Assembly (NCBI GenBank): GCA_041660565.1
Contig: JBAZWC010000002.1
Coordinates: 20,315 to 84,314 of the forward strand
Reading direction: 5' to 3'
Source: Patescibacteria group bacterium
Lineage (GTDB): Bacteria > Patescibacteriota > UBA1384 > CAJBMM01
Length of the DNA: 64,000 bases
Below are positions 3,305 to 56,890 of this stretch, piece after piece. The first letter of the stretch is position 1; every line of letters starts with the position of its first letter. The translations under genes and the position numbers were made by a program. The notes beneath the pieces were generated by a model, which saw only the letters and a list, made by a program, of their open reading frames with translations, had not been told where the DNA came from and did not search any database.

Positions 3305-4021
3305 ATGTCCGGACACTCTAAATGGGCCACCACCAAACATCAGAAAGCCGTTACCGACGCCAGACGTGGAGCGGCGTTTACCAAAATTGCCAATATGATC
3401 ACCGTAGCCGCACGTGAAGGTGGCGATGTGGAATTTAATTTCAAACTGCGCCTGGCGGTGGAAAAAGCCAAAGCGGCCAGTATGCCCAAAGACAACATTG
3501 AACGAGCAATTGTGCGCGGATCGGGCAAAGGTGATGGAGCCAATAAATTAGAAGAGCTGACCTACGAGGCCTACGGCCCAGGCGGATCTGCCATGATTAT
3601 CACCGCTTTGACTGATAATAAACTTAGAACATATACCGACATTCGGGCGATAATGAACAAGGCGAACGGCCGCATTGCCGAAGCTGGTTCGGTGATGTAC
3701 TTGTTTAAGCATAGTGGCGAGATTATCGTTTCGCACGCACCGGAAAAATCAGACGAAGTACAGCTAATTGCCATAGACCAAGGCGCAGACGATGTTGAAA
3801 GCGATGAAGGGCTAACCCGCGTCATCACCGCCGTACCGGATCTGCAAAAAATCCGTCAGGGTCTACTTGATGCGGGATTGACGGTGGATGACGCCAAGTT
3901 GCAATGGATCGCCAAAACTCCGCATATTTTATCAGATGAAGATTTAGCAAAATTAGATAGATTAATTGAACTATTAGATGAACTAGACGATGTCACCGAA
4001 GTAGCAACAAACGTTGGATAG
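3305..4021 (+). CDS. yebC: YebC/PmpR family DNA-binding transcriptional regulator
   Basis: N-terminus MSGHSKWATTKHQKA is the family signature. RBS AAGGAAGGAG lies 6 nt before the ATG at 3305; the longer GTG-3284 version in the ORF track is unlikely. Confidence 0.85.
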   Translation: MSGHSKWATTKHQKAVTDARRGAAFTKIANMITVAAREGGDVEFNFKLRLAVEKAKAASMPKDNIERAIVRGSGKGDGANKLEELTYEAYGPGGSAMIITALTDNKLRTYTDIRAIMNKANGRIAEAGSVMYLFKHSGEIIVSHAPEKSDEVQLIAIDQGADDVESDEGLTRVITAVPDLQKIRQGLLDAGLTVDDAKLQWIAKTPHILSDEDLAKLDRLIELLDELDDVTEVATNVG

Positions 4022-4128
4022 TAAGGGCGTTTAGGGGGCTTGGGGGAGTTAGGGTCATTGGGAGAGCCAAATGGTTCCCCAAAACCCCTAACCACCCTAA
4101 AATCCCTAACGCCTTTCGAATTTTTGAC

Positions 4129-4168
4129 AAAAGAAAACGCCCCGTGCCATACAGGCCACGGGAGCGTT
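4129..4168 (-). terminator. rho-independent terminator (GC hairpin CCCGTGGCC..GGCACGGGG + TTTTCTTT on minus strand), copy 1 of a duplicated 39-nt unit
   Basis: A near-identical 39-nt sequence recurs at 4494-4532. It lies directly downstream of minus-strand gene 4181..4408. Confidence 0.55.
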
Positions 4169-4180
4169 AGTGCGGGCGGG

Positions 4181-4408
4181 CTACTGCTCTGCCAGATACG
4201 CGGTGTATTCCCGCGCGTCCAGATCATAGGTCAGGATGCACCTGTCTCGGTTACCCGGAGTCAGGCTGCAATGTCGGGTAGTAGCGCCGATGGCGCTTGC
4301 GGGCGGTTCCACGCCGATGGGGGCGGGGACAACTGGTCGTCCTTGGAACGCACTCTTGACGCCCGTACCATCTGGGTGCCAAAGAATGTAGGCGGGTATT
4401 GCTTGCAT
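4181..4408 (-). CDS. small hypothetical protein, paralog C of a tandem triplet (GC-rich islet)
   Basis: RBS GGGAGAAGG precedes the ATG. It shares the motif block PGNRDRCILTYDLDAREYTAY with EDCVLVKMGTVYFAYP and EDCILVPGPSGKTYFAFP in the two upstream genes. Confidence 0.5.
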   Translation of the reverse strand: MQAIPAYILWHPDGTGVKSAFQGRPVVPAPIGVEPPASAIGATTRHCSLTPGNRDRCILTYDLDAREYTAYLAEQ

Positions 4409-4493
4409 AACCTTCTCCCGTGATATGAATCATCAGTGCAAGTTGGCCTTACGCCTTTAGTGTCTGTTTTTATATTCGCTTTGTCAAATATGT

Positions 4494-4532
4494 AAAGAAA
4501 ACGCCCCGTGCCATACTGGCCACGGGGACGTT
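4494..4532 (-). terminator. rho-independent terminator, copy 2 of the duplicated 39-nt unit
   Basis: Same hairpin and T-tract, downstream of minus-strand gene 4547..4879. Confidence 0.55.
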
Positions 4533-4546
4533 GATAAAAGCGAAGC

Positions 4547-4879
4547 CTAACCTTTTGCCGGGTAGGCGAAGTAGACAGTTCCCATCTTTACCAGCACGCA
4601 GTCTTCCTCCTGCCCGACTGTGGGGTATTGTGTTCTGGTTTTGGCAGATAATCCCGTCGGGGGTTTGTCTCCAAGGCGGGACGGGAAAACCGCCGCCCGC
4701 AGGTAAAAGGCCTTGACAGGATCTGTACCGGGGTTGTGACGGAGATGGCGACGCGGGTTATCGCCCCACGTTACCGTAAAACGAACGACCAGTTGTTGAT
4801 CTTGCACCACCACGTCAGTCTCCTTTGTGGTTGGTGAAACGCCCCCGGCCGGGTGGCCGAAGGGCGTCGTCAAAGGCAT
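4547..4879 (-). CDS. small hypothetical protein, paralog B of the tandem triplet
   Basis: Its start abuts the stop of 4881..5282 (translational coupling). Conserved blocks TVTWGDNPRRH, AVFPSRLGDKPP and EDCVLVKMGTVYFAYP align with paralogs A and C. Confidence 0.5.
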   Translation of the reverse strand: MPLTTPFGHPAGGVSPTTKETDVVVQDQQLVVRFTVTWGDNPRRHLRHNPGTDPVKAFYLRAAVFPSRLGDKPPTGLSAKTRTQYPTVGQEEDCVLVKMGTVYFAYPAKG

Positions 4880-4880
4880 G

Positions 4881-5282
4881 CTACTTGGTTGGGTTCAACA
4901 CGATGGTGATTCGTCCGTCGGGGGACTTGGTGACCCCACCGAGCCGATATCCATCAGCGAGAGTCAGCACATTACCGTCGATATCGTATGTTGTGCATAC
5001 TATAACCTCGACGACATCACCCTGATCCATGACTGGGAAAGCGAAGTACGTCTTCCCGGATGGACCAGGGACAAGAATGCAATCCTCCGAATCCCCAACA
5101 ACAGGATACCTCTTTCGCGCCACCGCCCCGGAATCCTCTGGGGGGATATATCCGAGGTCCGACGGGAAAACGATCACGTTGCCGTGAGCTGCAACGCAGT
5201 TGCTGGAGCCAGGTTTCCTGTTCCAGCGCTCATTCTTCTGCCACGTGATAACGACACGAACACGGTCAGGTACTTCCGGCAT
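4881..5282 (-). CDS. small hypothetical protein, paralog A (longest, with a ~40 aa C-terminal extension)
   Basis: RBS AAAGGA lies 7 nt upstream of the ATG. It is GC-rich. The opposite-strand ORF 4827..5357 is judged an antisense artefact. Confidence 0.5.
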   Translation of the reverse strand: MPEVPDRVRVVITWQKNERWNRKPGSSNCVAAHGNVIVFPSDLGYIPPEDSGAVARKRYPVVGDSEDCILVPGPSGKTYFAFPVMDQGDVVEVIVCTTYDIDGNVLTLADGYRLGGVTKSPDGRITIVLNPTK

Positions 5283-5481
5283 TGCAATGTCCTTTCATTA
5301 ACTAAAATGAGAGGCTGCCACAGTATCAGTATTAGCATATTGTCACATATAGAATAGAATGTCAATATGTTATTCGTTCGGTTTAGAGGTTATACTACAA
5401 TGTGAAGTCGGATTAGGTTCGCCACAAAGCGGGCGGACATGCTAGTCCGCCCCTACACCACAGGGAAGAACAAGGAGGAAA

Positions 5482-6009
5482 ATGAGAATTTTAGGAATTG
5501 ATCCGGGTACCGCCATTATTGGCTACGGGATGATTGAATGTGATCACGGCGAAATCGTGTGCGGATATCATCACGCCATCTATGGCGCAATTCAAACCGA
5601 CAAAGATCAAACCGCATCGGCACGCTTGTTAGTTCAGTACGGTCAACTTACCGGATTAATCAGGTCTGCTAAACCTGACTTAATTGTCACCGAGAAACTG
5701 TTTTTTGCCCGAAACGTTACCACTGCCATTGCCGTTGGGCAATCGCGCGGCATTATTTTGCTTACCGCCGAACAAGCCGGCGCACCATTGTTTGAATACA
5801 CGCCAATGCAGATTAAGCAGCAGATTACCGGTTACGGCAAGGCAGATAAAAAGCAGATTCGCGAAATGGTTAAGAAAATTATGCAATTAGACACCGAACG
5901 CACTAAATTAGACGATGCGTGGGACGGCTTGGCCATTGCGATAACTCACTGCTATCTTGCGGGTTTGGCAGTCCGACCAGAGTTTATAGTACAAAATACG
6001 AAGCACTAA
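5482..6009 (+). CDS. ruvC: crossover junction endodeoxyribonuclease RuvC (Holliday junction resolvase)
   Basis: MRILGIDPGT N-terminus. RBS CAAGGAGGAAA. It is the usual neighbour of yebC, here separated from it by the GC-rich islet. Confidence 0.85.
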   Translation: MRILGIDPGTAIIGYGMIECDHGEIVCGYHHAIYGAIQTDKDQTASARLLVQYGQLTGLIRSAKPDLIVTEKLFFARNVTTAIAVGQSRGIILLTAEQAGAPLFEYTPMQIKQQITGYGKADKKQIREMVKKIMQLDTERTKLDDAWDGLAIAITHCYLAGLAVRPEFIVQNTKH

Positions 6010-6153
6010 GCACGAAATACGAAACAAATTCAAAATTAAAAAAGTTTAAAAATTTCAAATTTCAAATTTCAAATTTTCATTATCGCCAAACAAAACGTAT
6101 TGGATTCTGCCATCCACAATGACACCGCACACTTTTTAATCTAGAATAAAGTT

Positions 6154-7122
6154 ATGCCCAGAATTCGTCAAAATATTGTTACCGGGGAATGGGTGGTGGT
6201 GGCACCTGAACGCGCCAAACGCCCCGAAGAATTTAATAAACGGCCTTTTTCGGCGGCCCTGCTGCACGACCAAGAATGTTTCTTTTGTGTTGGCGGTTCG
6301 GCGTGGAACGAACGACTAGACCGCGTTGGTAGTAAAAATATTTACGTTATTCCAAATAAATTCCCCGCTTTTACCAAAGAAACTAATATTGAAGAGACCG
6401 GACACGATTTTTTCTCCGACAACTCGGCCGAAGGTGTTCACGAGGTGATTATATTATCCAATCCAAATGATGCACTGAATAAAATATCGTCTAAAAATTT
6501 AGCGGATTTATTACAGGTGATGCGTGATCGCACCCGATTTTATCAACAAGACGTCAGTATTCGATCGTTTACCCCTATTTACAATCACGGCTTGGGTTCC
6601 GGCGCTTCGGTAAATCATCCTCACGCTCAATTTTTTGGCAATAATTTAGTGCCACCCAGACTACTCAATGAATTTATGGGCTCGGAACAGTACTTTCACC
6701 ATCAGCGCAACTGCGTTTTTTGTGATTTATTAACTTTTGAGCTTAAAGAAAATTCGCGTGTTGTTTTTAAGAATGACGGCGCGGTGGCCGTGACCGCATA
6801 CGCACCCAGATTTCCGTTTGAAACTTGGATTATCCCTACCGACCACTTGTCCACTTTTGCCGGAGCGTCTGACAAAACTTTGAAACAAGTTGCCGAAGCC
6901 TTGCGATCAATTATGAAACAGTTTGACCAAAAATTAAGTAATCCACCCCTAAACTGGTTTATCCACACTTCACGAAGTTTTGATTATCACCAAAAAATGA
7001 CCTACCACTGGCATTTGGAAATTACACCACGGCTTTCCACCTACGGTGGTTACGAACTAGCCACCGATATGACTATCGAAACAGTAATGCCCGAAATCGC
7101 CGCCAGATTCCTTAAATCATAA
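6154..7122 (+). CDS. galactose-1-phosphate uridylyltransferase family (GalT-like HIT nucleotidyltransferase)
   Basis: Zinc-knuckle CFFC near the N-terminus and the HIT-like active site NHPHAQ (the GalT H-P-H motif). Confidence 0.6.
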   Translation: MPRIRQNIVTGEWVVVAPERAKRPEEFNKRPFSAALLHDQECFFCVGGSAWNERLDRVGSKNIYVIPNKFPAFTKETNIEETGHDFFSDNSAEGVHEVIILSNPNDALNKISSKNLADLLQVMRDRTRFYQQDVSIRSFTPIYNHGLGSGASVNHPHAQFFGNNLVPPRLLNEFMGSEQYFHHQRNCVFCDLLTFELKENSRVVFKNDGAVAVTAYAPRFPFETWIIPTDHLSTFAGASDKTLKQVAEALRSIMKQFDQKLSNPPLNWFIHTSRSFDYHQKMTYHWHLEITPRLSTYGGYELATDMTIETVMPEIAARFLKS

Positions 7123-7141
7123 GTAAATCTCACGAGCATCG

Positions 7142-7215
7142 TAGGGGCAATACCTCGTTTCACTTCGGAAACCAGAGGTTAACACGAATTGCCCGCGGGC
7201 GGTTCATGAACCGCC
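7142..7215. mobile_element. MITE-like element, family C (termini GTAGGGGC...GCCCCTAC), containing a 60-nt core shared with 30146-30205
   Basis: The core gtaggggc[a/g]atacctcgtttcacttcggaaaccagaggttaacacgaat[t/c]gccc is repeated at 30146. Its right end is a GGGCGGttcatgaaCCGCCC hairpin. Confidence 0.5.
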
Positions 7216-8660
7216 CCTACGGATTTTCTAAACATTTGTCTTTTCGATAAACTCCACCAAATAAAAATTAATATTGCCAAATACCACGGGAATAACCCGC
7301 CTTTTTGCCATGTAAATGATGCGTAGGGAATTTGACTCCCCAAGGCAATCACCCACAAAAACCCATGCAACGGATAGTACAAAATTGAGCTGGTAATTAA
7401 AGTAATTTTTAGCGGAATAGCCATCAAAATCACTCCCGCCAATCCAACTAACATCATTAGTGGAATCAGTGGCAAAATAACCAAATTACTTAAAGGTGAG
7501 ATGATGGTTAGCTGACCAAATGCACCGAGCAAATATGGTAAGGTGGCAATTTGGGCGCCCACGGTTTGGCTAAATATCAAACGCAAGCTGTCTAGCCGTA
7601 GCCATTTGGTTTTAGGATAGAGCATCGGACCGATTTCAACCAAACCAAAAAATGCCAAAAACGACAAAATGAATCCGGCGTCATCTTTAACCGCAAACGG
7701 ATTAATTATTGCCATAATAGTGGCCACGCTACAGATAAGTAGCAAACTGTGTGGCGCACGACCAATCAATTTACCCAACAGCATCACCCATGCCATTACC
7801 GCCGCGCGAACGATAGATGATGGCGCACCAGTAAAAATTACGAACAGCAAGACCAGCGCTGCGGAAAAACCAATCGCCCATTTTTTGTGCACCAAACCGG
7901 CCAACACTATTGGCCACAAGCTAATAATGGTTAAGTTATAGCCCGAAACGGCGGTCAGGTGCGAAATGCCGAGGGTGCGAAACTGGTCGGTAATTGCTTT
8001 GGGCAACAACCCCGATCCGCCAAATAGCAATCCAAACAACAAACCGGATTCGTTGTTGGGCAAAGCAATTTGATTGCGTGACTTAATGTAATCTTTAAAT
8101 TGATAAAGATAGTGAGTCAGCGGATTGCCGCGGTTAGTACTGGTGGTTTGAAATTGAGTGATTGTGGTTTGGTATTTCGCACCGCGCACCCGCCAATATC
8201 GCGCACCATCAAATTTACTGGTAGCGGTAATTTCAGATAATTTGCCCGAGAATTTGACTTCATCACCGTAGTTTAGGGTGGCGGATTGCGGGAAATAGGC
8301 CAGAATCTGCGGGTGTGATGGAATGTTGGTGACAGTTAAGACTGCTTGTTTATTATACAAACCATCGTTAAGCGGCGTAGCAAGATGCCCGGTAATTTGC
8401 ATGGCAGATCCGGTTGGAAGATTCACGTTCCAGCGGTTAAAATTCGTTTGCCATAATCCAATTCCGCCAATCAATCCAATTACACCAATTATTCCAATAC
8501 GCACCCTTTGATTTGGCCAAGAAAGCACCAAGCTAACCAACAGCCCTAAGCCAAGCCAAAAAAGTGGCAGACCGGCGGGTACAAATTCGGCTACCACGCA
8601 GCCACCAATAAATCCGAGACACAAAAAACAAATCAGATTAAGCCGATCTCGCAGTTTCAT
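7179..8660 (-). CDS. comEC: ComEC/Rec2-family competence membrane protein (DNA internalisation channel; no metallo-beta-lactamase domain)
   Basis: 493 aa polytopic membrane protein carrying the family motif GISHLTAVSGYNLTII. Confidence 0.6.
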   Translation of the reverse strand: MKLRDRLNLICFLCLGFIGGCVVAEFVPAGLPLFWLGLGLLVSLVLSWPNQRVRIGIIGVIGLIGGIGLWQTNFNRWNVNLPTGSAMQITGHLATPLNDGLYNKQAVLTVTNIPSHPQILAYFPQSATLNYGDEVKFSGKLSEITATSKFDGARYWRVRGAKYQTTITQFQTTSTNRGNPLTHYLYQFKDYIKSRNQIALPNNESGLLFGLLFGGSGLLPKAITDQFRTLGISHLTAVSGYNLTIISLWPIVLAGLVHKKWAIGFSAALVLLFVIFTGAPSSIVRAAVMAWVMLLGKLIGRAPHSLLLICSVATIMAIINPFAVKDDAGFILSFLAFFGLVEIGPMLYPKTKWLRLDSLRLIFSQTVGAQIATLPYLLGAFGQLTIISPLSNLVILPLIPLMMLVGLAGVILMAIPLKITLITSSILYYPLHGFLWVIALGSQIPYASFTWQKGGLFPWYLAILIFIWWSLSKRQMFRKSVGAVHEPPAGNSC

Positions 8661-8758
8661 AGCTCTACAATATCAGAAAACGGATGACGGAGGACAGAAG
8701 ACGGAGGACGGATCGTCGTTATTGTCAAACCCCCAACCCGTGAATCCGGAAAATAATA

Positions 8759-8882
8759 TGTCATTTCGACCCTAGGAGATTGTCAAATCGACTATGTTGG
8801 AGAAATCTGAGAAAGAATCCCTTCCAGTCTTTTCTGGAGATTTCTCCACCCTCGACTTGAATGTCGAGGAGTCGAAATGACA
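8759..8882. mobile_element. MITE-like element, family A copy 1 (TIR TGTCATTTCGAC / GTCGAAATGACA; inner IR GGAGAAATCT / AGATTTCTCC); flanked by outer IR GTGAATCCGGAAA / TTTCCGGATTCAC
   Basis: Perfect 12-bp terminal inverted repeats seen in sequence. The same architecture recurs at least 8 more times in the window. Confidence 0.7.
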
Positions 8883-9009
8883 AACCGTAGATATTTTTAT
8901 TTAATTTCCGGATTCACGTCCCAACACCCCTAATCCCCCTAAACTCCCTTACACCCCTACACAAAACCATCTTTTTCTGCCATAATTGAAGCTGACAAAC
9001 GGAGGAAAA

Positions 9010-9486
9010 ATGCCTAAAAAAGTTAAACCCGAGATTAATGAATACGAACAAAAAGCGAACGAATATTTGGCCGGATGGCAACGCGCCCAGGCCGATTTAG
9101 TAAATATGCGAAATCGCCACGAAGAAGATCGCAAATCGCTACTATCCTACGCTCACAGCGACATTGTAGAACAAATCTTGCCGGTTTTTGACAATTTTAT
9201 GCGCGCCGCAGAGCACACTCCAACCGACGAATCAGCTAATTGGACCAATTGGGCTAACGGTATTAAGGCAATTGAAAAACAATTTGAAACTGTCTTAAAC
9301 CAATGCGGTGTAAACCAAATTAAAGTTGCGATTGGCGACACATTTGATCCAAATTTTCACGAAGCGTTGATGACCGAAAAATCAGAGCTGGAACCGGATA
9401 AAATCCTTGCCATAATTGAACCGGGTTATATGTTGAATGATAAAGTACTCAGACCGGTTAAGGTTAAGGTGAGTAGTGGGGAGTAG
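9010..9486 (+). CDS. grpE: nucleotide exchange factor GrpE
   Basis: GrpE-like coiled-coil plus C-terminal beta domain. It lies immediately upstream of dnaK. RBS AACGGAGGAAAAATG. Confidence 0.75.
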   Translation: MPKKVKPEINEYEQKANEYLAGWQRAQADLVNMRNRHEEDRKSLLSYAHSDIVEQILPVFDNFMRAAEHTPTDESANWTNWANGIKAIEKQFETVLNQCGVNQIKVAIGDTFDPNFHEALMTEKSELEPDKILAIIEPGYMLNDKVLRPVKVKVSSGE

Positions 9487-9494
9487 ATCGCACC

Positions 9495-9619
9495 TGTCAT
9501 TTCGACCCTGCGAGCATTGCCGAGCTGTTGGAGAAATCTCCAAGAAAAACCGGAAGGGATTCTTTTCTAAGATTTCTCCACCGTGGTCGGGTTGACACCC
9601 TTCCCGAGTCGAAATGACA
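9495..9619. mobile_element. MITE-like element, family A copy 2
   Basis: TGTCATTTCGACC...GAGTCGAAATGACA with internal GGAGAAATCTCC / AGATTTCTCCACC. Confidence 0.7.
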
Positions 9620-9634
9620 AAGAAAATAAGAAGG

Positions 9635-9664
9635 TTGACAAAATGTAAAGGATACTTTACATTT
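9635..9664 (+). promoter_or_regulatory. dnaK promoter region: -35-like TTGACA followed by a perfect palindrome AAATGTAAAG-gatac-CTTTACATTT (candidate operator); TATAAT at 9685-9690
   Basis: 10-bp perfect inverted-repeat arms seen in sequence. It does not match CIRCE, HAIR or the CtsR box. Confidence 0.4.
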
Positions 9665-9708
9665 ATTAGTAGTTAAATTAAGATTATAATTAAAGATCAG
9701 GAGGTTTT

Positions 9709-11601
9709 ATGGGTAAAATAATCGGTATCGATTTAGGTACTACCAACTCGGTTGGCGCCGTAATGGAAGCTGGCAGCGCCAAAGTAATCCCCACCGCCGA
9801 GGGCGGTAACATTGTGCCATCTATTGTTGCTATCAACAAAAATAATGAGCGACTGGTAGGGCAAATTGCTAAGCGCCAAGCGGTCACTAATCCCGCCAAC
9901 ACTATCTTTTCCATTAAACGTTTTATCGGACGCAAATTTGACGATAAAGACGTTCAAGACGATCTAAAACATATTCCTTATAAAGCGGTTAAAGCAGCCA
10001 ACGGCTCTGTTTCGGTGATGTTAAATGATAAAGAGTACACCCCGCAAGAAATTTCCTCGTTTATTTTAGCCAAAATTAAGCAAGATGCTGAAAGCTATTT
10101 GGGCGAACCGGTAACTGATGCGGTTATCACCGTGCCAGCTTATTTTGACGATGCCGAACGCCAAGCCACCAAAGACGCCGGCAAAATTGCCGGGCTGAAC
10201 GTGCAACGTATCATTAATGAACCAACTGCTGCCGCACTGGCTTACGGCTTGGAAAAACAGAAAAATGAAAAAGTGGCGGTTTTTGATTTAGGCGGTGGTA
10301 CGTTTGATATTACCGTGCTGGAACTATCCGCTGCCGATGGCGAATCAAGTTTTGAGGTAATTGCCACCAACGGTGATACGCATTTGGGTGGAGACGACTT
10401 TGACCAAAAATTGATGCAAGAATTACTTGAAATCTTTAAAAAGGATCAGGGAATTGATCTATCAAAAGACATCATGGCATTGCAACGTATTAAAGAAGCG
10501 GCCGAAAAAGCCAAAATTGAGCTTTCTAACACTTTGGAAACCGAAGTTAACTTACCGTTTATCACCGCAGACGCTAACGGGCCAAAACATTTGGTCACCA
10601 AAATTACTCGTGCGCGCTTGGAACAACTAACCGAAGATTTGGTTCAGCGCACCTTAGAGCCCTGCAAAAAAGCGCTAGCCGACTCAAAACTAAACCCATC
10701 CGATGTTAACGAAGTCATTTTAGTTGGTGGGCAAACCCGTATGCCACGAGTAATTGCGGCGGTCAAAGATTTCTTTGGCAAAGAACCAAACAAAAGCGTA
10801 AATCCGGATGAAGCAGTAGCAATTGGCGCCGCTATTCAAGGTGGAGTGTTGGGCGGCGATGTTAAAGACGTATTGCTGTTAGATGTTACCCCGCTGTCTT
10901 TGGGATTAGAAACTTTGGGTGGAGTAATGACCAGATTAATTGAGCGCAACACTACCATCCCGACATCAAAATCACAGGTGTTTTCTACTGCTAGCGATAA
11001 TCAACCGGCTGTGGAAATCCACGTCTTACAAGGTGAGCGCGATATGGCCGCGGACAACAAAACCTTAGGCCAGTTTGTACTGGATGGCATCCCACCAGCC
11101 CCCAGAGGCGTGCCACAGGTTGAAGTTACGTTTGACATAGATGCTAATGGTATTGTTCACGTTTCAGCCAAAGACAAGGCCACCGGTAAAGAACAAAAAA
11201 TCACCATCACTTCTTCTTCCGGATTATCCGACGAAGAAATTAGTAAGATGCAAAAAGACGCCGAAGCACACGCGGACGAAGATAAGAAGAAACGCGAACT
11301 TGTGGAAAGCAAGAATATCGCCGATAATATGATATATACGGCCGAAAAAACATTGCGCGATTTAGGCGAAAAAGCCGATCCGGAATTAAAACGAGCGGTT
11401 GAAGACGCGGTGCTGGCAGTCAAAAACACCCTAACATCTAACGATGCAGCGCAAATTGCCAAAGCAACCGAAGAGTTAAGTAATCACCTATCCAAACTGG
11501 GACAAGCGGCTTATCAAGAACCAGAAAAATCTGAAACAAAAACCGACGAGGCGGGGGAGAAGCCAAAGGATGACAAAGAGGGGCAGGATCAATCTAAATA
11601 G
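9709..11601 (+). CDS. dnaK: molecular chaperone DnaK (Hsp70)
   Basis: [18 protein letters not shown] and the rest of the Hsp70 sequence throughout. RBS AGGAGG. Confidence 0.97.
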
Positions 11602-15209: not shown

Positions 15210-15653
15210 ATGTTACGCATCCGCCTAGCCCGACGTGGCCAAAAACATCAGCCGACTTATCGCTTAGTAGTTGCTGAGCACACCCGACCAACCACCGGTA
15301 AGTTTGTCGAGATTTTGGGTCACTACATTCCGACCACAAAACCAAAAGTGTTCGAAGTTAAAAAAGACCGCGTTTTGTACTGGATTGAGCGCGGCGCTCA
15401 GCCAACCGATACTGTGCACAATTTGTTAGTTGATGCCGGTGTGTTGACAGACAAGCGCGACATTCGCTACGCTAAAGAAAAGATCGAGGAGGACAAAGCA
15501 GAGAAGGTCGAAAAAGTCGAAGACGCCGCTAAAGATACAGTGCCCGAGGAAGTTCCAGAAGAATCAGTTGATAATCCTGTTGAAGACGCCACCGAAGAAA
15601 AAGTTGAAGAAGCTACCGAAGAAGTAGTTGAACCCGACGCCAATCAGTCATAA
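15210..15653 (+). CDS. rpsP: 30S ribosomal protein S16 with an acidic C-terminal extension
   Basis: MLRIRLARRGQKHQPTYRLVVAE is the canonical S16 N-terminus. RBS AAGGAAAAG. Confidence 0.85.
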   Translation: MLRIRLARRGQKHQPTYRLVVAEHTRPTTGKFVEILGHYIPTTKPKVFEVKKDRVLYWIERGAQPTDTVHNLLVDAGVLTDKRDIRYAKEKIEEDKAEKVEKVEDAAKDTVPEEVPEESVDNPVEDATEEKVEEATEEVVEPDANQS

Positions 15654-15676
15654 ACATATCAAAAAATGGAGATAAG

Positions 15677-16066
15677 ATGACGCAAATGTCAGACCAAGAG
15701 TTCGTCCAAACGATCGTTAAGGCGATTGTGGATCACCCCGAGGATGTCAAAACCGAGCGTGTGGTAGACGACAAAGGAATTCTAATCTCGCTAACGGTAA
15801 ACGAAGAGGATATGGGAAAAATAATTGGTAAAGGCGGACGAACCGTCAACTCAATCCGCAAATTATTGCATGTTCTAGGTGCCAAAACCGACGAACGTAT
15901 CAATCTAAAAATTTACGAGCCAGATGGCCAAGAGGTTTCCACCCCAACCGAAGACTCAGTAGTTGAAGAACCAGAGAAAAAAGAGGAAGTCGTTGAAGAA
16001 AGCGCTCCAGAAAAACCCAAAGATGAGCCGAAACTAGACGATGTCCCAACCGACGTATTAGTCTAA
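15677..16066 (+). CDS. KH-domain RNA-binding protein (YlqC family), acidic tail
   Basis: GKIIGKGGRTVNSIRKL KH motif. Canonical position between rpsP and trmD. Confidence 0.7.
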   Translation: MTQMSDQEFVQTIVKAIVDHPEDVKTERVVDDKGILISLTVNEEDMGKIIGKGGRTVNSIRKLLHVLGAKTDERINLKIYEPDGQEVSTPTEDSVVEEPEKKEEVVEESAPEKPKDEPKLDDVPTDVLV

Positions 16067-16965: not shown

Positions 16966-17661
16966 CTACCCGGGTTTGACCAGTAACTCCCGCCATGGAG
17001 ACTGCGTTAGATCCAGCGGTCCCAGATCCTCGTGGACCATTTCCCAGTGCACTCTGGTTAGCCCCTCCGCAATCGGGTTACCCTCTAGCACGGCGATCAT
17101 CATGGCAACGCATGCGGTCATTTTGGTTTCCATCGCACCGAGCCAGTTGCCAACGTCCACCAGCCAGAAGTACCGATACAGGTTACCATAATCGGTATCT
17201 GGGCTGCTGTAGGCATAATCGGCATAGTGAGACGGCTGTTGCCCATTAATGTCAAGCGCGAAACACAGCGCCATATTGTACATCGAATGAGCAGCGACAT
17301 GAACGATCGACGCGTTGAAGTCGTAATCCACAAACCGCTTTGGCAACAGCGATGCCACGGTTAACCGATTTGGGTAGCCTAACCCTCGTCGCACTTCATG
17401 ACAAGTACCCTGATGGTCCAAATAGACGTCGACGAATTGAGCGATAGCGCTGATTCGTCGTTGCACTTCTGGCCAATCATGAACCCGCTGCACGTGACGC
17501 GATATTTCCAGTTCTCCAGTGAGCACCGGATTCGACAGTAACGGGATGCGCGGACGGAACTTGGCTGCTACTTCGGGGTAGTATTGCAATATCCCCGCTC
17601 TTTCCGCGCCCAGCTGTAAAGCTTGTGCGCCTTTTGAGCGCACTGATGTCCATGCGCTCAT
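16966..17661 (-). CDS. hypothetical protein (231 aa) in a GC-rich islet; no family recognised
   Basis: RBS AAAGGAGAAAC upstream of the ATG. GC-rich composition contrasts with its neighbours. Confidence 0.5.
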   Translation of the reverse strand: MSAWTSVRSKGAQALQLGAERAGILQYYPEVAAKFRPRIPLLSNPVLTGELEISRHVQRVHDWPEVQRRISAIAQFVDVYLDHQGTCHEVRRGLGYPNRLTVASLLPKRFVDYDFNASIVHVAAHSMYNMALCFALDINGQQPSHYADYAYSSPDTDYGNLYRYFWLVDVGNWLGAMETKMTACVAMMIAVLEGNPIAEGLTRVHWEMVHEDLGPLDLTQSPWRELLVKPG

Positions 17662-17742
17662 TTCTGAGTTTCTCCTTTAGAGAAAGCAGAGGCTCCCGGA
17701 ACGTTATACAACGCGGGAGCCTTGAGTGTGCAGGAGCGGCGA

Positions 17743-17952
17743 TCAGCGGGGAATACGGCGCGGGCCATGGGGCATGTTCGGCCTCTTGCCGGCGGTGAAG
17801 CCGGCGGCGGAATCCGTCGTGACCGGCACCCCGCTGTGGGTGCCTCCGAGCCCCCACGGCTTCCGTTCCGCGATCTCGGCGTCGCGAAGCGCGACGTACT
17901 CGTCTCGGGATATCTGACCGTTGTCCAGCTTCTCACGAAGATTGCTAGCCAT
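17743..17952 (-). CDS. small SHOCT-like domain protein (69 aa; start at the internal ATG with RBS GGAAGGAG)
   Basis: MASNLREKLDNGQISRDEYVALRDAEIAERK resembles the short C-terminal SHOCT motif. It is followed by a GGCTCCCG...CGGGAGCC hairpin. The longer 110-aa ORF version is disfavoured. Confidence 0.4.
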   Translation of the reverse strand: MASNLREKLDNGQISRDEYVALRDAEIAERKPWGLGGTHSGVPVTTDSAAGFTAGKRPNMPHGPRRIPR

Positions 17953-18126
17953 CTCGATCCGACTCCTTCCAGAGAATGTGTGCCGCGATTGCCGGATGCG
18001 GCACAAATGATGGGTTCGCCCGGAGCCTGTCTGACGAAGCTCCAGCGTATGCATATATTGTATCAAAAATTTCAATACTTGTCAATAGCTGAAAAAGATG
18101 TTATGGTAGAAGTCACAATATAGTTC

Positions 18127-43460: not shown

Positions 43461-43603
43461 ATCAGAAAATAGATGATCGATTTTTCGCGTTCGAACGGAG
43501 AGAGAACTAATCAGAACAACGCCGGAAAGTTCTCGTTTCACTCGAACAAGAATGTATAACCTGTCATTCCGGAAAAAATCTCTGAATCTATATAAAAAAA
43601 GAA

Positions 43604-43643
43604 GAAGCGCGGGTGGCCGGTTTGGCCCTCGCGCTCTTTTGAG
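43604..43643. terminator. bidirectional rho-independent terminator (GCGCGGGTGGCC-ggtttg-GGCCCTCGCGC with T-tracts on both strands)
   Basis: Seen in sequence. It separates the DUF2207 gene (+) from the paralog array (-). Confidence 0.55.
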
Positions 43644-43647
43644 TTGA

Positions 43648-43907
43648 TCACGCCCCATGACGATGACGCCGATAGTCGATGAGGCAAGGAATGAACCACA
43701 CAAGCGCCAACCAGCGACCCCTGTATGTCTTAGCCGCAAACATGTGGATCATGACGGATAGACAATAGGCCGCGCCCAGCATCACGATTCCGATCGAGAT
43801 CCAACCGCGAGACCAGAGCGCCCCCATATGATGCCATCCCCCGATTACCCACAGTATGATCGCGGCCATCACCGGCGCGATCCACGACTTCCAGCATGCG
43901 AGCATCC
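43648..43907 (-). CDS. small 2-TM membrane protein, paralog 3 of a tandem triplet (GC-rich islet)
   Basis: ATG at 43907 preceded by GGGAGG. Shares G(A/S)AYC...M...W(P/F) blocks with the two upstream genes. Confidence 0.5.
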
Positions 43908-44162
43908 TCAGGCCTCCCGTGAACAACGTCGCTTGCGGCGATCATTGAGCCACAGCTTGGGCCAAACAAAAGCCGTGAAAACCCGTTTGGGATCAACGGT
44001 GCCGATAAACGCCATCGTTATCGAGCAATATGCCGAGCCGGCGACATACAACACCAGTAGCAACCATCGGCCGTCGTTCCATCGCGAGGATACAAGATCC
44101 CAGCCTGCAACCAGGAAGAACACGAACCAGAGCAGAGACACCACCTTCATTCGCCAAGTCAT
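43908..44162 (-). CDS. small 2-TM membrane protein, paralog 2
   Basis: RBS GGGAGGG. YVAGSAYCSITMAFIG...FVWPKLWLNDRR aligns with paralogs 1 and 3. Its stop abuts the start of paralog 3. Confidence 0.5.
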   Translation of the reverse strand: MTWRMKVVSLLWFVFFLVAGWDLVSSRWNDGRWLLLVLYVAGSAYCSITMAFIGTVDPKRVFTAFVWPKLWLNDRRKRRCSREA

Positions 44163-44201
44163 TGCGTTTCCCTCCCGGGAGTCAAAACGGTAGTGGCCGT
44201 G

Positions 44202-44456
44202 TTAGGCCGATCGGTAATGATTGCGTATTTGCAGGTAGACGGTGTATGGCCACAAAAACGCCTCGATCCTGCCCTTGTCGTCGTCAGCACCAAGCATACA
44301 TATCACCGTCATTGGAACGTATATGCACGCCAACGCGCCCACCACTTGCCAGAACGCCTGACAATCAAGGATGCCGTTGCACCATCCGTTATCCGCAACC
44401 AACAGTGCAACAAGAACGAGAGCTGGAGCAGCCAAAGGCCAACTACGCACAAGCAT
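44202..44456 (-). CDS. small 2-TM membrane protein, paralog 1
   Basis: RBS AAGGAGGG. ALACIYVPMTVICMLG...FLWPYTVYLQIR aligns with the other two. Confidence 0.5.
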   Translation of the reverse strand: MLVRSWPLAAPALVLVALLVADNGWCNGILDCQAFWQVVGALACIYVPMTVICMLGADDDKGRIEAFLWPYTVYLQIRNHYRSA

Positions 44457-44609
44457 TGTACACCCTCCTTGCCGCAGAGTAGGGAAGTGCTGACCATAAT
44501 ATACCCTAAATTGAGGTAAATGTCACGGCATTCCCTCGTTATCCTTCAAAATCCTTAGTAATCCCTTAGTCCGACGAGACGGTCGAGTGGGGGATTGTCA
44601 AAAAACTTT

Positions 44610-56845: not shown

Positions 56846-56851
56846 TAAGAA

Positions 56852-56880
56852 TAGGGGCGGGACATCGCTGTCCCGCCCCT
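56852..56880 (-). terminator. terminator hairpin AGGGGCGGGACAGCGATGTCCCGCCCCT (family C-like GC clamp) + T-rich tail on the minus strand
   Basis: 10 nt downstream of the stop of 56891..57370. Confidence 0.5.
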
Positions 56881-56890
56881 TGCGGTAAAC

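Follow-up and report, generated by a model that had tools for sequence, protein, structure and literature searches.

Stand-alone S1 and TRAM proteins such as MJ1198 (PDB 2k52) and MM1357 (PDB 1yez) are small, cytoplasmic, single-domain proteins whose core of ~60-85 amino acids (aa) forms a five-stranded barrel, and orphan immunity or anti-defence arrays are made of small, tandem, strongly diverged and fast-evolving paralogues with expression signals of their own, and lack a mobility gene. A segment that resembles both lies between yebC and ruvC in a stretch of DNA of a Patescibacteria group bacterium (contig JBAZWC010000002.1, positions 20,315 to 84,314; the whole 64 kb is called the window here), where three minus-strand open reading frames (ORFs), labelled ORF1, ORF2 and ORF3, form a tandem array in an islet of high guanine-plus-cytosine (GC) content at positions 4120-5300 of the window. 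It also departs from both. The encoded family has no sequence or profile similarity to the S1 and TRAM proteins, carries an extra acidic beta tail, evolves very fast, has an anomalous GC content, and has a proline-rich loop (S.G..PP...R...P..G) joining strands 3 and 4 in place of the helix that is usual in OB folds. Unlike immunity or anti-defence arrays, the array of the window has no cognate toxin or defence context and no PADLOC or Pfam immunity match, and in relatives the family gene is single-copy, syntenic and promoter-conserved. Taken as a whole, the best explanation, to which we assign a probability of about 60%, is that the islet arose by local amplification of a resident, lineage-specific gene and is not fresh foreign DNA.

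A sequence-only reading of the window had described the three ORFs as paralogues, and they are: ORF1 is 43% identical to ORF2 and 28% identical to ORF3. The blocks common to them lie around W14, VFPS.G..PP, R56, E.C.L and YFAYP, and the motif blocks listed in that reading are present. Three copies at 28-43% identity are tandem divergent paralogues of the kind by which polymorphic-toxin immunity arrays are recognised. In pairwise comparisons of the trio, the proportion of nonsynonymous differences (pN, 0.43-0.58) is below that of synonymous differences (pS, 0.76-0.79), which is saturated. This includes ORF3 (pN 0.52-0.58, pS 0.76), the most degenerate paralogue, from which N.R, E66, P60 and P83 are missing.

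We found the family to which these proteins belong by an exhaustive search of 1.84 billion representatives with a hidden Markov model (HMM) of the three paralogues. It returned 35 matches including ORF1-3; the 32 further proteins have E-values of 8e-13 to 1e-3, and 31 of them are convincing, the other being a low-complexity repeat protein. A word-indexed search of 5.8 billion clusters, by comparison, recovered self matches only, or four members. Most homologues are 111-159 aa long and similar to ORF1 in layout, with an N-domain of ~85 aa that bears the motifs of the barrel (W..N.R, VFPS.G..PP, R...P..G.E.C.L and G..YFAYP) and a tail of ~45 aa (HG.YF...EVTVVPA...V.A...DG.I.I.V.P). P0007 (83 aa; P-numbers designate proteins and L-numbers the contigs of relatives, both being labels of this analysis) consists of the N-domain only, as do ORF2 and ORF3. 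Seven members of ~220 aa (P0008, P0010, P0013, P0019-P0021 and P0033) contain two N-domains, and hence two barrels, followed by one tail. Such two-barrel members, including the one encoded at 10001-10684 of L094, are the intragenic counterpart of the tandem duplication in the window.

The earlier statement that no family could be assigned agrees with our searches, as neither Pfam nor NCBIfam matches the three ORFs at E-values up to 10. Pfam applied to 26 aligned members (E up to 1) and a sequence-profile search of the PDB yielded chance matches only (E ~0.8 for the PDB), and scans of metagenome contigs with ORF1 and with RuvC gave no match. All 16 family genes that we read, in 14 distinct genomic settings, lie in DNA resembling that of the Candidate Phyla Radiation (CPR). 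The family is protein-coding and previously undescribed, and appears to be restricted to one CPR branch.

Its coding status is visible in a codon alignment of ten family coding sequences, where nucleotide identity at positions 1, 2 and 3 is 0.49, 0.53 and 0.32, and where 59% of the cells with an identical amino acid use different codons; contigs with identical family proteins are also identical in DNA. This bears on the idea that the islet is a GC-rich non-coding element, a structured RNA or a repeat, in which stop-free frames arose by chance. Long shadow ORFs exist on the plus strand (for example 4827-5357, 176 aa, and 4040-4423, 127 aa), and ORF1 is the only one of the trio annotated by NCBI (hypothetical protein WC773_02685 of the Patescibacteria group bacterium metagenome-assembled genome, on a contig of 374 kb). 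Against this stand the randomised third positions under conserved amino acids, significant profile matches in unrelated contigs, a confident AlphaFold model and the lack of any Rfam family at gathering score; we hold the idea to be highly improbable for the islet and refuted for the family as a whole. Over the whole window, Rfam at gathering thresholds gave nothing relevant, the sole tRNA being at 62.3 kb, and in the islet at E up to 1 there was one far-sub-threshold chance match to a microRNA model (E 0.14), in the long hairpin behind yebC.

A scan of GTDB species representatives with YebC gave the two closest reference genomes, L014 and L015. Adjacency of yebC and ruvC had been taken as the normal state, and five distant CPR genomes (L016-L019 and L038; YebC 44-54% identical) bear this out, with gaps of ~10-70 bp between the two genes and no family gene there. 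Judged from these gene orders, adjacency is ancestral in CPR and the family gene is an insertion. L014, a Berkelbacteria bin (YebC 77% identical), and L015 (71%) show yebC on the plus strand, one full-length family gene on the minus strand (6128-6517, 129 aa, and 4025-4396, 123 aa, respectively) and ruvC on the plus strand. In L003 (YebC 66%) the family gene, encoding P0035, adjoins yebC on the same side and in the same orientation, and the contig ends before ruvC. The claim that the segment was recently imported fails on these three loci, each with a single orthologue at the same yebC-side site, in the same orientation and with the same promoter: absence from close relatives would mark a recent transfer, and the family gene is missing only in the distant CPR genomes. 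Given the same-site orthologues and the shared promoter, the gene was inserted before at least four genomes split from one another. Outside the window, every locus scanned with the family HMM has exactly one copy, against three in the window, and the triplication and the tail loss in two copies are specific to the window genome. As all relatives keep the tail, ORF2 and ORF3 are tail-less derivatives.

The gene has other homes. In a second Berkelbacteria-like group, which includes RIFOXYA2_FULL_43_10 and GCA_030591885.1, it stands head-to-head with metG and is followed by a GNAT gene or a 200-aa ORF and by an rsmI-like methylase gene; the full arrangement is seen in L007, L008-10, L011-12 and L013, and the metG side only in L004/5 and L097. 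A two-barrel member is head-to-head with secD. In L096 (GCA_021812945.1) the family gene precedes a yebC-rmuC-ruvC-galT string and is transcribed away from it. In each locus with a visible and identified upstream neighbour, that neighbour opens a co-directional housekeeping run, and the family gene is divergent from it. The L096 region (7016-10381) has rmuC between yebC and ruvC and the family gene beyond the other side of yebC, so that the association with yebC is kept and the geometry differs.

The islet has a GC content of 55.5%, against 43.4% for the rest of the window, which is ~3.4 standard deviations above the mean of equal-sized segments, and its tetranucleotide distance has a z-score of 3.8. 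This is the atypical composition expected of a transferred islet. The strong excess noted by eye is thus real, while the ~60% estimated then was too high and is approached only at the peaks (0.57-0.60). GC changes abruptly at both edges of the islet, as it would if the reads of a GC-rich organism had been misjoined into a CPR contig. Such an assembly chimera is refuted. In an independent Logan assembly of SRR18595301, which spans both junctions, the aligned islet is the same at all 1,379 shared positions (100% identity), so the join is not the artefact of one assembler, and genomes from other samples carry a homologous GC-rich gene at the same junction.

The same GC offset recurs in every host of the family. 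The 16 family genes have GC contents of 0.52-0.61 and a GC content at third codon positions (GC3) of 0.56-0.75, next to flanks of 0.275 (L002) to 0.45, and at two-fold sites C/(C+T) is 0.65 and G/(G+A) 0.64 in the family, compared with 0.35 and 0.38 in neighbouring core genes. Composition is therefore a property of the family and not a sign of fresh arrival, and the offset of the islet does not date a transfer; because synonymous sites are saturated and GC-rich everywhere, the bias is maintained and not merely inherited from a donor. High expression was considered as a cause of the GC-rich codons and rejected, since two short putative ribosomal-protein ORFs (15210-16066) and dnaK reach a GC3 of only 0.43-0.46. 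Like ordinary lineage-specific orphan or recently acquired genes, those of the family are taxonomically restricted, short, fast-evolving and unannotated. Orphan and recently acquired bacterial genes are, however, typically more AT-rich than the host genome, whereas the family, in which synteny is conserved and synonymous sites are saturated, nevertheless exceeds every host by 10-30 GC points.

These results also bear on the possibility that the islet is foreign DNA, recently acquired with an immunity or anti-defence array whose diversified copies bind different toxins or host or phage defence factors. The anomalous composition and the tandem, strongly diverged copies agree with it, as do the presence of the family at no fewer than three junctions in different clades (yebC/ruvC, metG and secD) and the lack of homologues beyond a handful of CPR-like contigs; very fast evolution, a tendency to duplicate and the existence of fused two-barrel members of ~220 aa are compatible with a role in conflict. 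The syntenic single-copy orthologues of L014, L015 and L003, with their promoter, contradict the recent import that it requires, and with GC-rich genes in every host composition does not date an arrival. Toxin, secretion and mobility genes are absent nearby: the neighbours (yebC, ruvC, galT, a ComEC-type gene and glycosyltransferases) include no Rhs, CdiA, WXG or LXG type, the ORFs contain no Imm or SUKH domain, and, as had been noted before, no recombinase or transposase occurs within ~4-6 kb in a Pfam survey of neighbour genes. PADLOC gave no family for any of ORF1-3 (E up to 10), BFVD no match at E <= 0.1, and neither tblastn against 50,697 GenBank phage records and PLSDB plasmids nor a scan of IMG/VR with the three-paralogue alignment found a match. 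In PHROGs, ORF2 and ORF3 matched nothing and the best E-value of ORF1 was 0.03; the family concerned, a phage head-tail adaptor (PHROG 763), was rejected as a candidate, there being no phage genes nearby. We consider this origin unlikely; a protein-binding immunity or anti-defence role as such has a similarly low probability, but is still to be reckoned with.

The features of the array are collected in Table 1. Promoter and terminator functions are predicted, the promoter from its consensus.

Table 1. Features of the islet and its two flanking genes; positions are those of the window.
Feature	Position	Strand	Description
yebC (TACO1/YebC family)	3305..4021	+	left flank, convergent with the array; Pfam PF20772 and PF01709; GC3 0.47-0.48
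Long imperfect hairpin with TTAGGG/CCCTAA-like repeats	4023..4116	+	94 nt, directly 3' of the yebC stop, then a T-rich run; -56.9 kcal/mol, z -5.7
Predicted intrinsic terminator of ORF3	4127..4168	-	hairpin and UUUUCUUUU; ~-21 kcal/mol
ORF3, 75 aa	4181..4408	-	barrel only; Shine-Dalgarno (SD) sequence GGGAGAAGG; family HMM 59.8 bits, E 2e-17; GC3 0.63
Predicted intrinsic terminator of ORF2	4492..4532	-	hairpin and UUUUCUUU; -20.9 kcal/mol, z -4.0
ORF2, 88 aa from GTG 4813	4547..4813	-	SD AAAGGAGA; barrel only, basic, isoelectric point (pI) 9.7; family HMM 79.8 bits
Degenerate third hairpin copy, after the ORF1 stop	4835..4872	-	weak T-tract GUUUCACC; -25.5 kcal/mol, z -3.2
ORF1, 133 aa	4881..5282	-	full-length member: ~85-aa five-stranded beta-barrel and ~45-aa acidic beta tail; family HMM 113.7 bits
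Predicted sigma-70-type promoter of the array	5337..5365	-	TTGACA, 17 nt, TG-a-CAATAT (extended -10)
ruvC	5482..6009	+	right flank, divergent from the array; Pfam PF02075; 61-67% identical to RuvC of L015 and L014

Read along the minus strand, the predicted promoter is followed by ORF1, a leaky hairpin, ORF2 and its terminator, a weak promoter-like site with TTGACA (4481-4486), and ORF3 and its terminator. The promoter, TTGACA-N17-TGnTAATAT, is common to the window, L014, L015 and L003, with TTGACA, a spacer of 17 nt and TGATAATAT (TGACAATAT in the window). For ORF2, an alternative reading starts at ATG 4879 and gives 110 aa (4547-4879). Its 22 extra residues are encoded by the degenerate hairpin, and the gene caller picked the 88-aa form (P0002); the GTG start at 4813 with its SD AAAGGAGA is more likely. 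The degenerate hairpin probably lets partial read-through into ORF2, and the long hairpin behind yebC is probably the terminator of that gene and a barrier between the convergent transcripts; it was not found in the orthologous loci of L014, L015 and L003. The other near neighbours of the array are glycosyltransferases, GH94, galT, a ComEC-type gene, grpE and dnaK.

The repeated 39-nt hairpin with T-tract reported from the sequence-only reading is present at 4130-4168 and 4494-4532 (AACGCCCCGTGCCATACNGGCCACGGG), where 36 of 39 positions (92%) are identical, loop and T-tract included, and none would be expected by chance. The inference drawn from it, that gene-plus-terminator units were duplicated, holds for the arrangement of a gene with its hairpin but not for a shared divergence, since the hairpins are nearly identical and the coding sequences behind which they stand are saturated (pS ~0.76). 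Conversion, sequence-specific constraint or later copying are possible reasons. A genome-wide hairpin like the repetitive extragenic palindromic elements was rejected, as the 64-kb window has only the two copies and the degenerate one.

Repeated units of a short ORF and an imperfect hairpin also recall integron cassette arrays. attC sites measure ~57-141 nt, whereas the hairpins of the window are shorter (31-38 nt), have T-tracts and are terminator-like, and the units of the window are paralogues of one gene and not unrelated cargo. By reading, with no attC covariance model applied, only the unit end at the ORF2 stop, one of three, has a GTTRRRY core; no integrase lies within ~4-6 kb, and we rejected integron cassettes. 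A diversity-generating retroelement was likewise rejected: there is no reverse transcriptase domain among the neighbours, and the paralogues differ throughout and not in a variable repeat, although no formal test of this was made.

A further element of ~30 nt, GCCTGATCCCGGGCTAATGGGAGAGGAG, lies in the 5' untranslated region of the family gene and is nearly identical in L014 (6518-6560), L015 (4397-4440) and L003 (860-904), where the family proteins downstream of it are only 25-35% identical to each other. It could form a small hairpin that overlaps the SD, and is missing upstream of ORF1 in the window.

The AlphaFold2 model based on the 26-sequence alignment has a mean predicted local distance difference test score (pLDDT) of 82, with ~94 for the N-domain (residues 1-85), ~61-79 for the tail and a disordered linker (88-100); a model from only three sequences (pLDDT 46) was discarded. 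The predicted barrel has five strands (residues 8-13, 29-33, 36-40, 65-72 and 78-84), and the proline-rich loop between strands 3 and 4 is long and conserved. No N-terminal hydrophobic stretch resembling a signal peptide is evident by reading, no predictor having been used. Foldseek gave no significant match of the predicted barrel to PDB or BFVD; the top structural neighbours of the barrel are S1 and TRAM RNA-binding domains. At the level of resemblance only, the modelled fold is a small OB/S1/TRAM-like barrel. A relationship with domain I of RuvA or with the gp5 OB domain was rejected (Foldseek E > 0.5, probability ~0.1-0.4).

Such a barrel might belong to a housekeeping RNA-binding accessory, either a stand-alone RNA chaperone of OB/TRAM type or a tRNA-binding cofactor like Trbp111 or CsaA, which in the latter case would replace the C-terminal tRNA-binding domain missing from the short methionyl-tRNA synthetases (MetRS, 474-507 aa) of these genomes. 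YebC belongs to a translation factor family, and the gene adjoins yebC or, in at least seven contigs, is head-to-head with metG. The S1 and TRAM neighbours of the model, the strong conserved promoter, and the aromatics and arginines among the conserved residues would also suit this role. However, none of the 26 members matches Pfam tRNA_bind (PF01588), S1 (PF00575), TRAM (PF01938) or a related profile at E up to 1, and on this ground we rejected the Trbp111/CsaA domain as a candidate. A divergence ~3-5 times that of the neighbours, and whole domains lost or gained, are not what one expects of a conserved translation cofactor; the full-length proteins are acidic, and the gene never runs in the same direction as metG or yebC. 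Trbp111, CsaA and the C-terminal OB domain of MetRS do share with the family a small OB-like build, and one clade of the family adjoins a metG whose product lacks the C-terminal appendage, whereas most CPR genomes lack the family, which is hypervariable and divergently transcribed, and proteins of the Trbp111 type are not among the top structural matches. A housekeeping role of this kind is improbable in our view.

The history that would best join these observations with the amplification of a resident gene begins in a Berkelbacteria-like Patescibacteria subclade, which would have carried the gene next to yebC since before these genomes diverged. The ancestral product would have been a cytoplasmic all-beta protein of ~125-135 aa with barrel and acidic tail, transcribed from its own conserved promoter of the sigma-70 type and typically head-to-head with the leading gene of a housekeeping operon (ruvC in the window, and metG, yebC or secD elsewhere). 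Two tandem duplications in the window genome followed, with the two downstream copies losing the tail and keeping the barrel. A ribosome-binding site and a predicted hairpin terminator accompany each of the three copies, and the two best of these terminators have stayed, or been made, nearly identical. As to function, the barrel may serve as a small module that binds, most likely, RNA or single-stranded nucleic acid, with a surface under diversifying pressure, and the three copies may provide three specificities or a higher dose. We offer this tentatively, with a chance of about one in three, the binding activity and the role in conflict being our inference.

The rate of evolution belongs to the same weighing. 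Same-locus orthologues are 24-35% identical where YebC is 66-77% identical, metG-locus members 28-38% where MetG is 58-80%, and in Poisson distances the divergence of the family is at least 3-5 times that of its neighbours over the same splits. Several points tell against the history proposed here. Same-locus orthologues are no closer to one another than to metG-locus members, and judged by sequence distances, repeated replacement at hot-spot loci fits as well as vertical descent with saturation, the two being inseparable on that measure. Taken alone, persistent GC-richness could also reflect ongoing import from a GC-rich pool that has escaped sampling. The nearly identical ORF2 and ORF3 hairpins and the saturated coding sequences disagree on the timing of the duplications. 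With regard to function, sequence and profile searches gave no link to any RNA-binding family, and the acidity of the full-length members (median pI 5.3; the barrel-only ORF2 and P0007 are basic, 9.7-9.9) does not favour simple nucleic-acid binding. We favour vertical descent because of the conserved promoter and synteny.

The islet is one instance of a genome-wide class of GC-rich short orphan ORFs. Gene composition in the window is bimodal, with core genes at a GC3 of 0.32-0.50 and eight short, minus-strand ORFs without Pfam match at 0.59-0.77, namely the family trio, 16966-17661, a trio at 43648-44456 and 56891-57415. In tetranucleotide composition no other part of the window deviates as strongly as the four islets concerned, which correlate with one another (r 0.35-0.51) and not with the core (r ~0). 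The 174-aa ORF at 56891-57415, in the most GC-rich of the other islets, matched only itself in 5.8 billion clusters, so that no GC-rich donor was identified for that islet either.

One may speculate that Berkelbacteria-type genomes have a compartment of short, orphan, hyper-variable genes that are kept GC-rich, against an AT-biased genomic background, by a gene-specific process, which might be a hot spot of recombination or biased conversion, or targeted diversification. The family would be its most widespread member, placed head-to-head with housekeeping operons, prone to tandem and intragenic duplication, and supplying diversifying binders in symbiont-host or anti-phage conflict, and the near-identical hairpins would be a trace of conversion. 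We think this scenario doubtful. Were a gene-specific mutational or recombinational process at work, GC content would be a simple marker for the fast-evolving 'interaction' genes of episymbionts. Much of CPR biology has to be deduced from genes whose function is unknown, and an undescribed, CPR-restricted family of small beta-barrels that is persistently GC-rich, evolves very fast and belongs to an atypical class of orphan genes is worth attention. It also warns users of island finders against taking every atypical GC content for recent horizontal transfer. The triplication taken alone is an ordinary lineage-specific expansion.

The three further GC-rich islets of the window span 16966-18100, 43600-44500 and 56850-57450 and reach a GC of 0.67. 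The second of these holds another tandem trio on the minus strand (43648-43926, 43908-44162 and 44202-44456), whose products of 92, 84 and 84 aa are 27-28% identical and hydrophobic, probably with two transmembrane segments, and which repeats the theme of tandem diverged paralogues. A contig of 27.5% GC (L002) encodes at 585-2258 four tandem small paralogues of 94-219 aa that start with MKIK(L/I/M)SK..WE/K, beside P0004, the gene of which has 58% GC; they have no significant Pfam match, and one of them has a sub-threshold match to POTRA_1. ORFs comparable to those of the islets, GC-rich and Pfam-less or unscanned, flank the family gene in L008, L011 and L013. At the metG locus of L011 (10381-10983) and L013 (5841-6461), GC-rich genes (GC3 0.67-0.71) convergent to the family gene encode proteins of 200-206 aa that are 45% identical and have, by reading, a signal-peptide-like hydrophobic stretch at the N-terminus; the L013 copy has no Pfam match. 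In L008, a GNAT gene stands in the place of this ORF.

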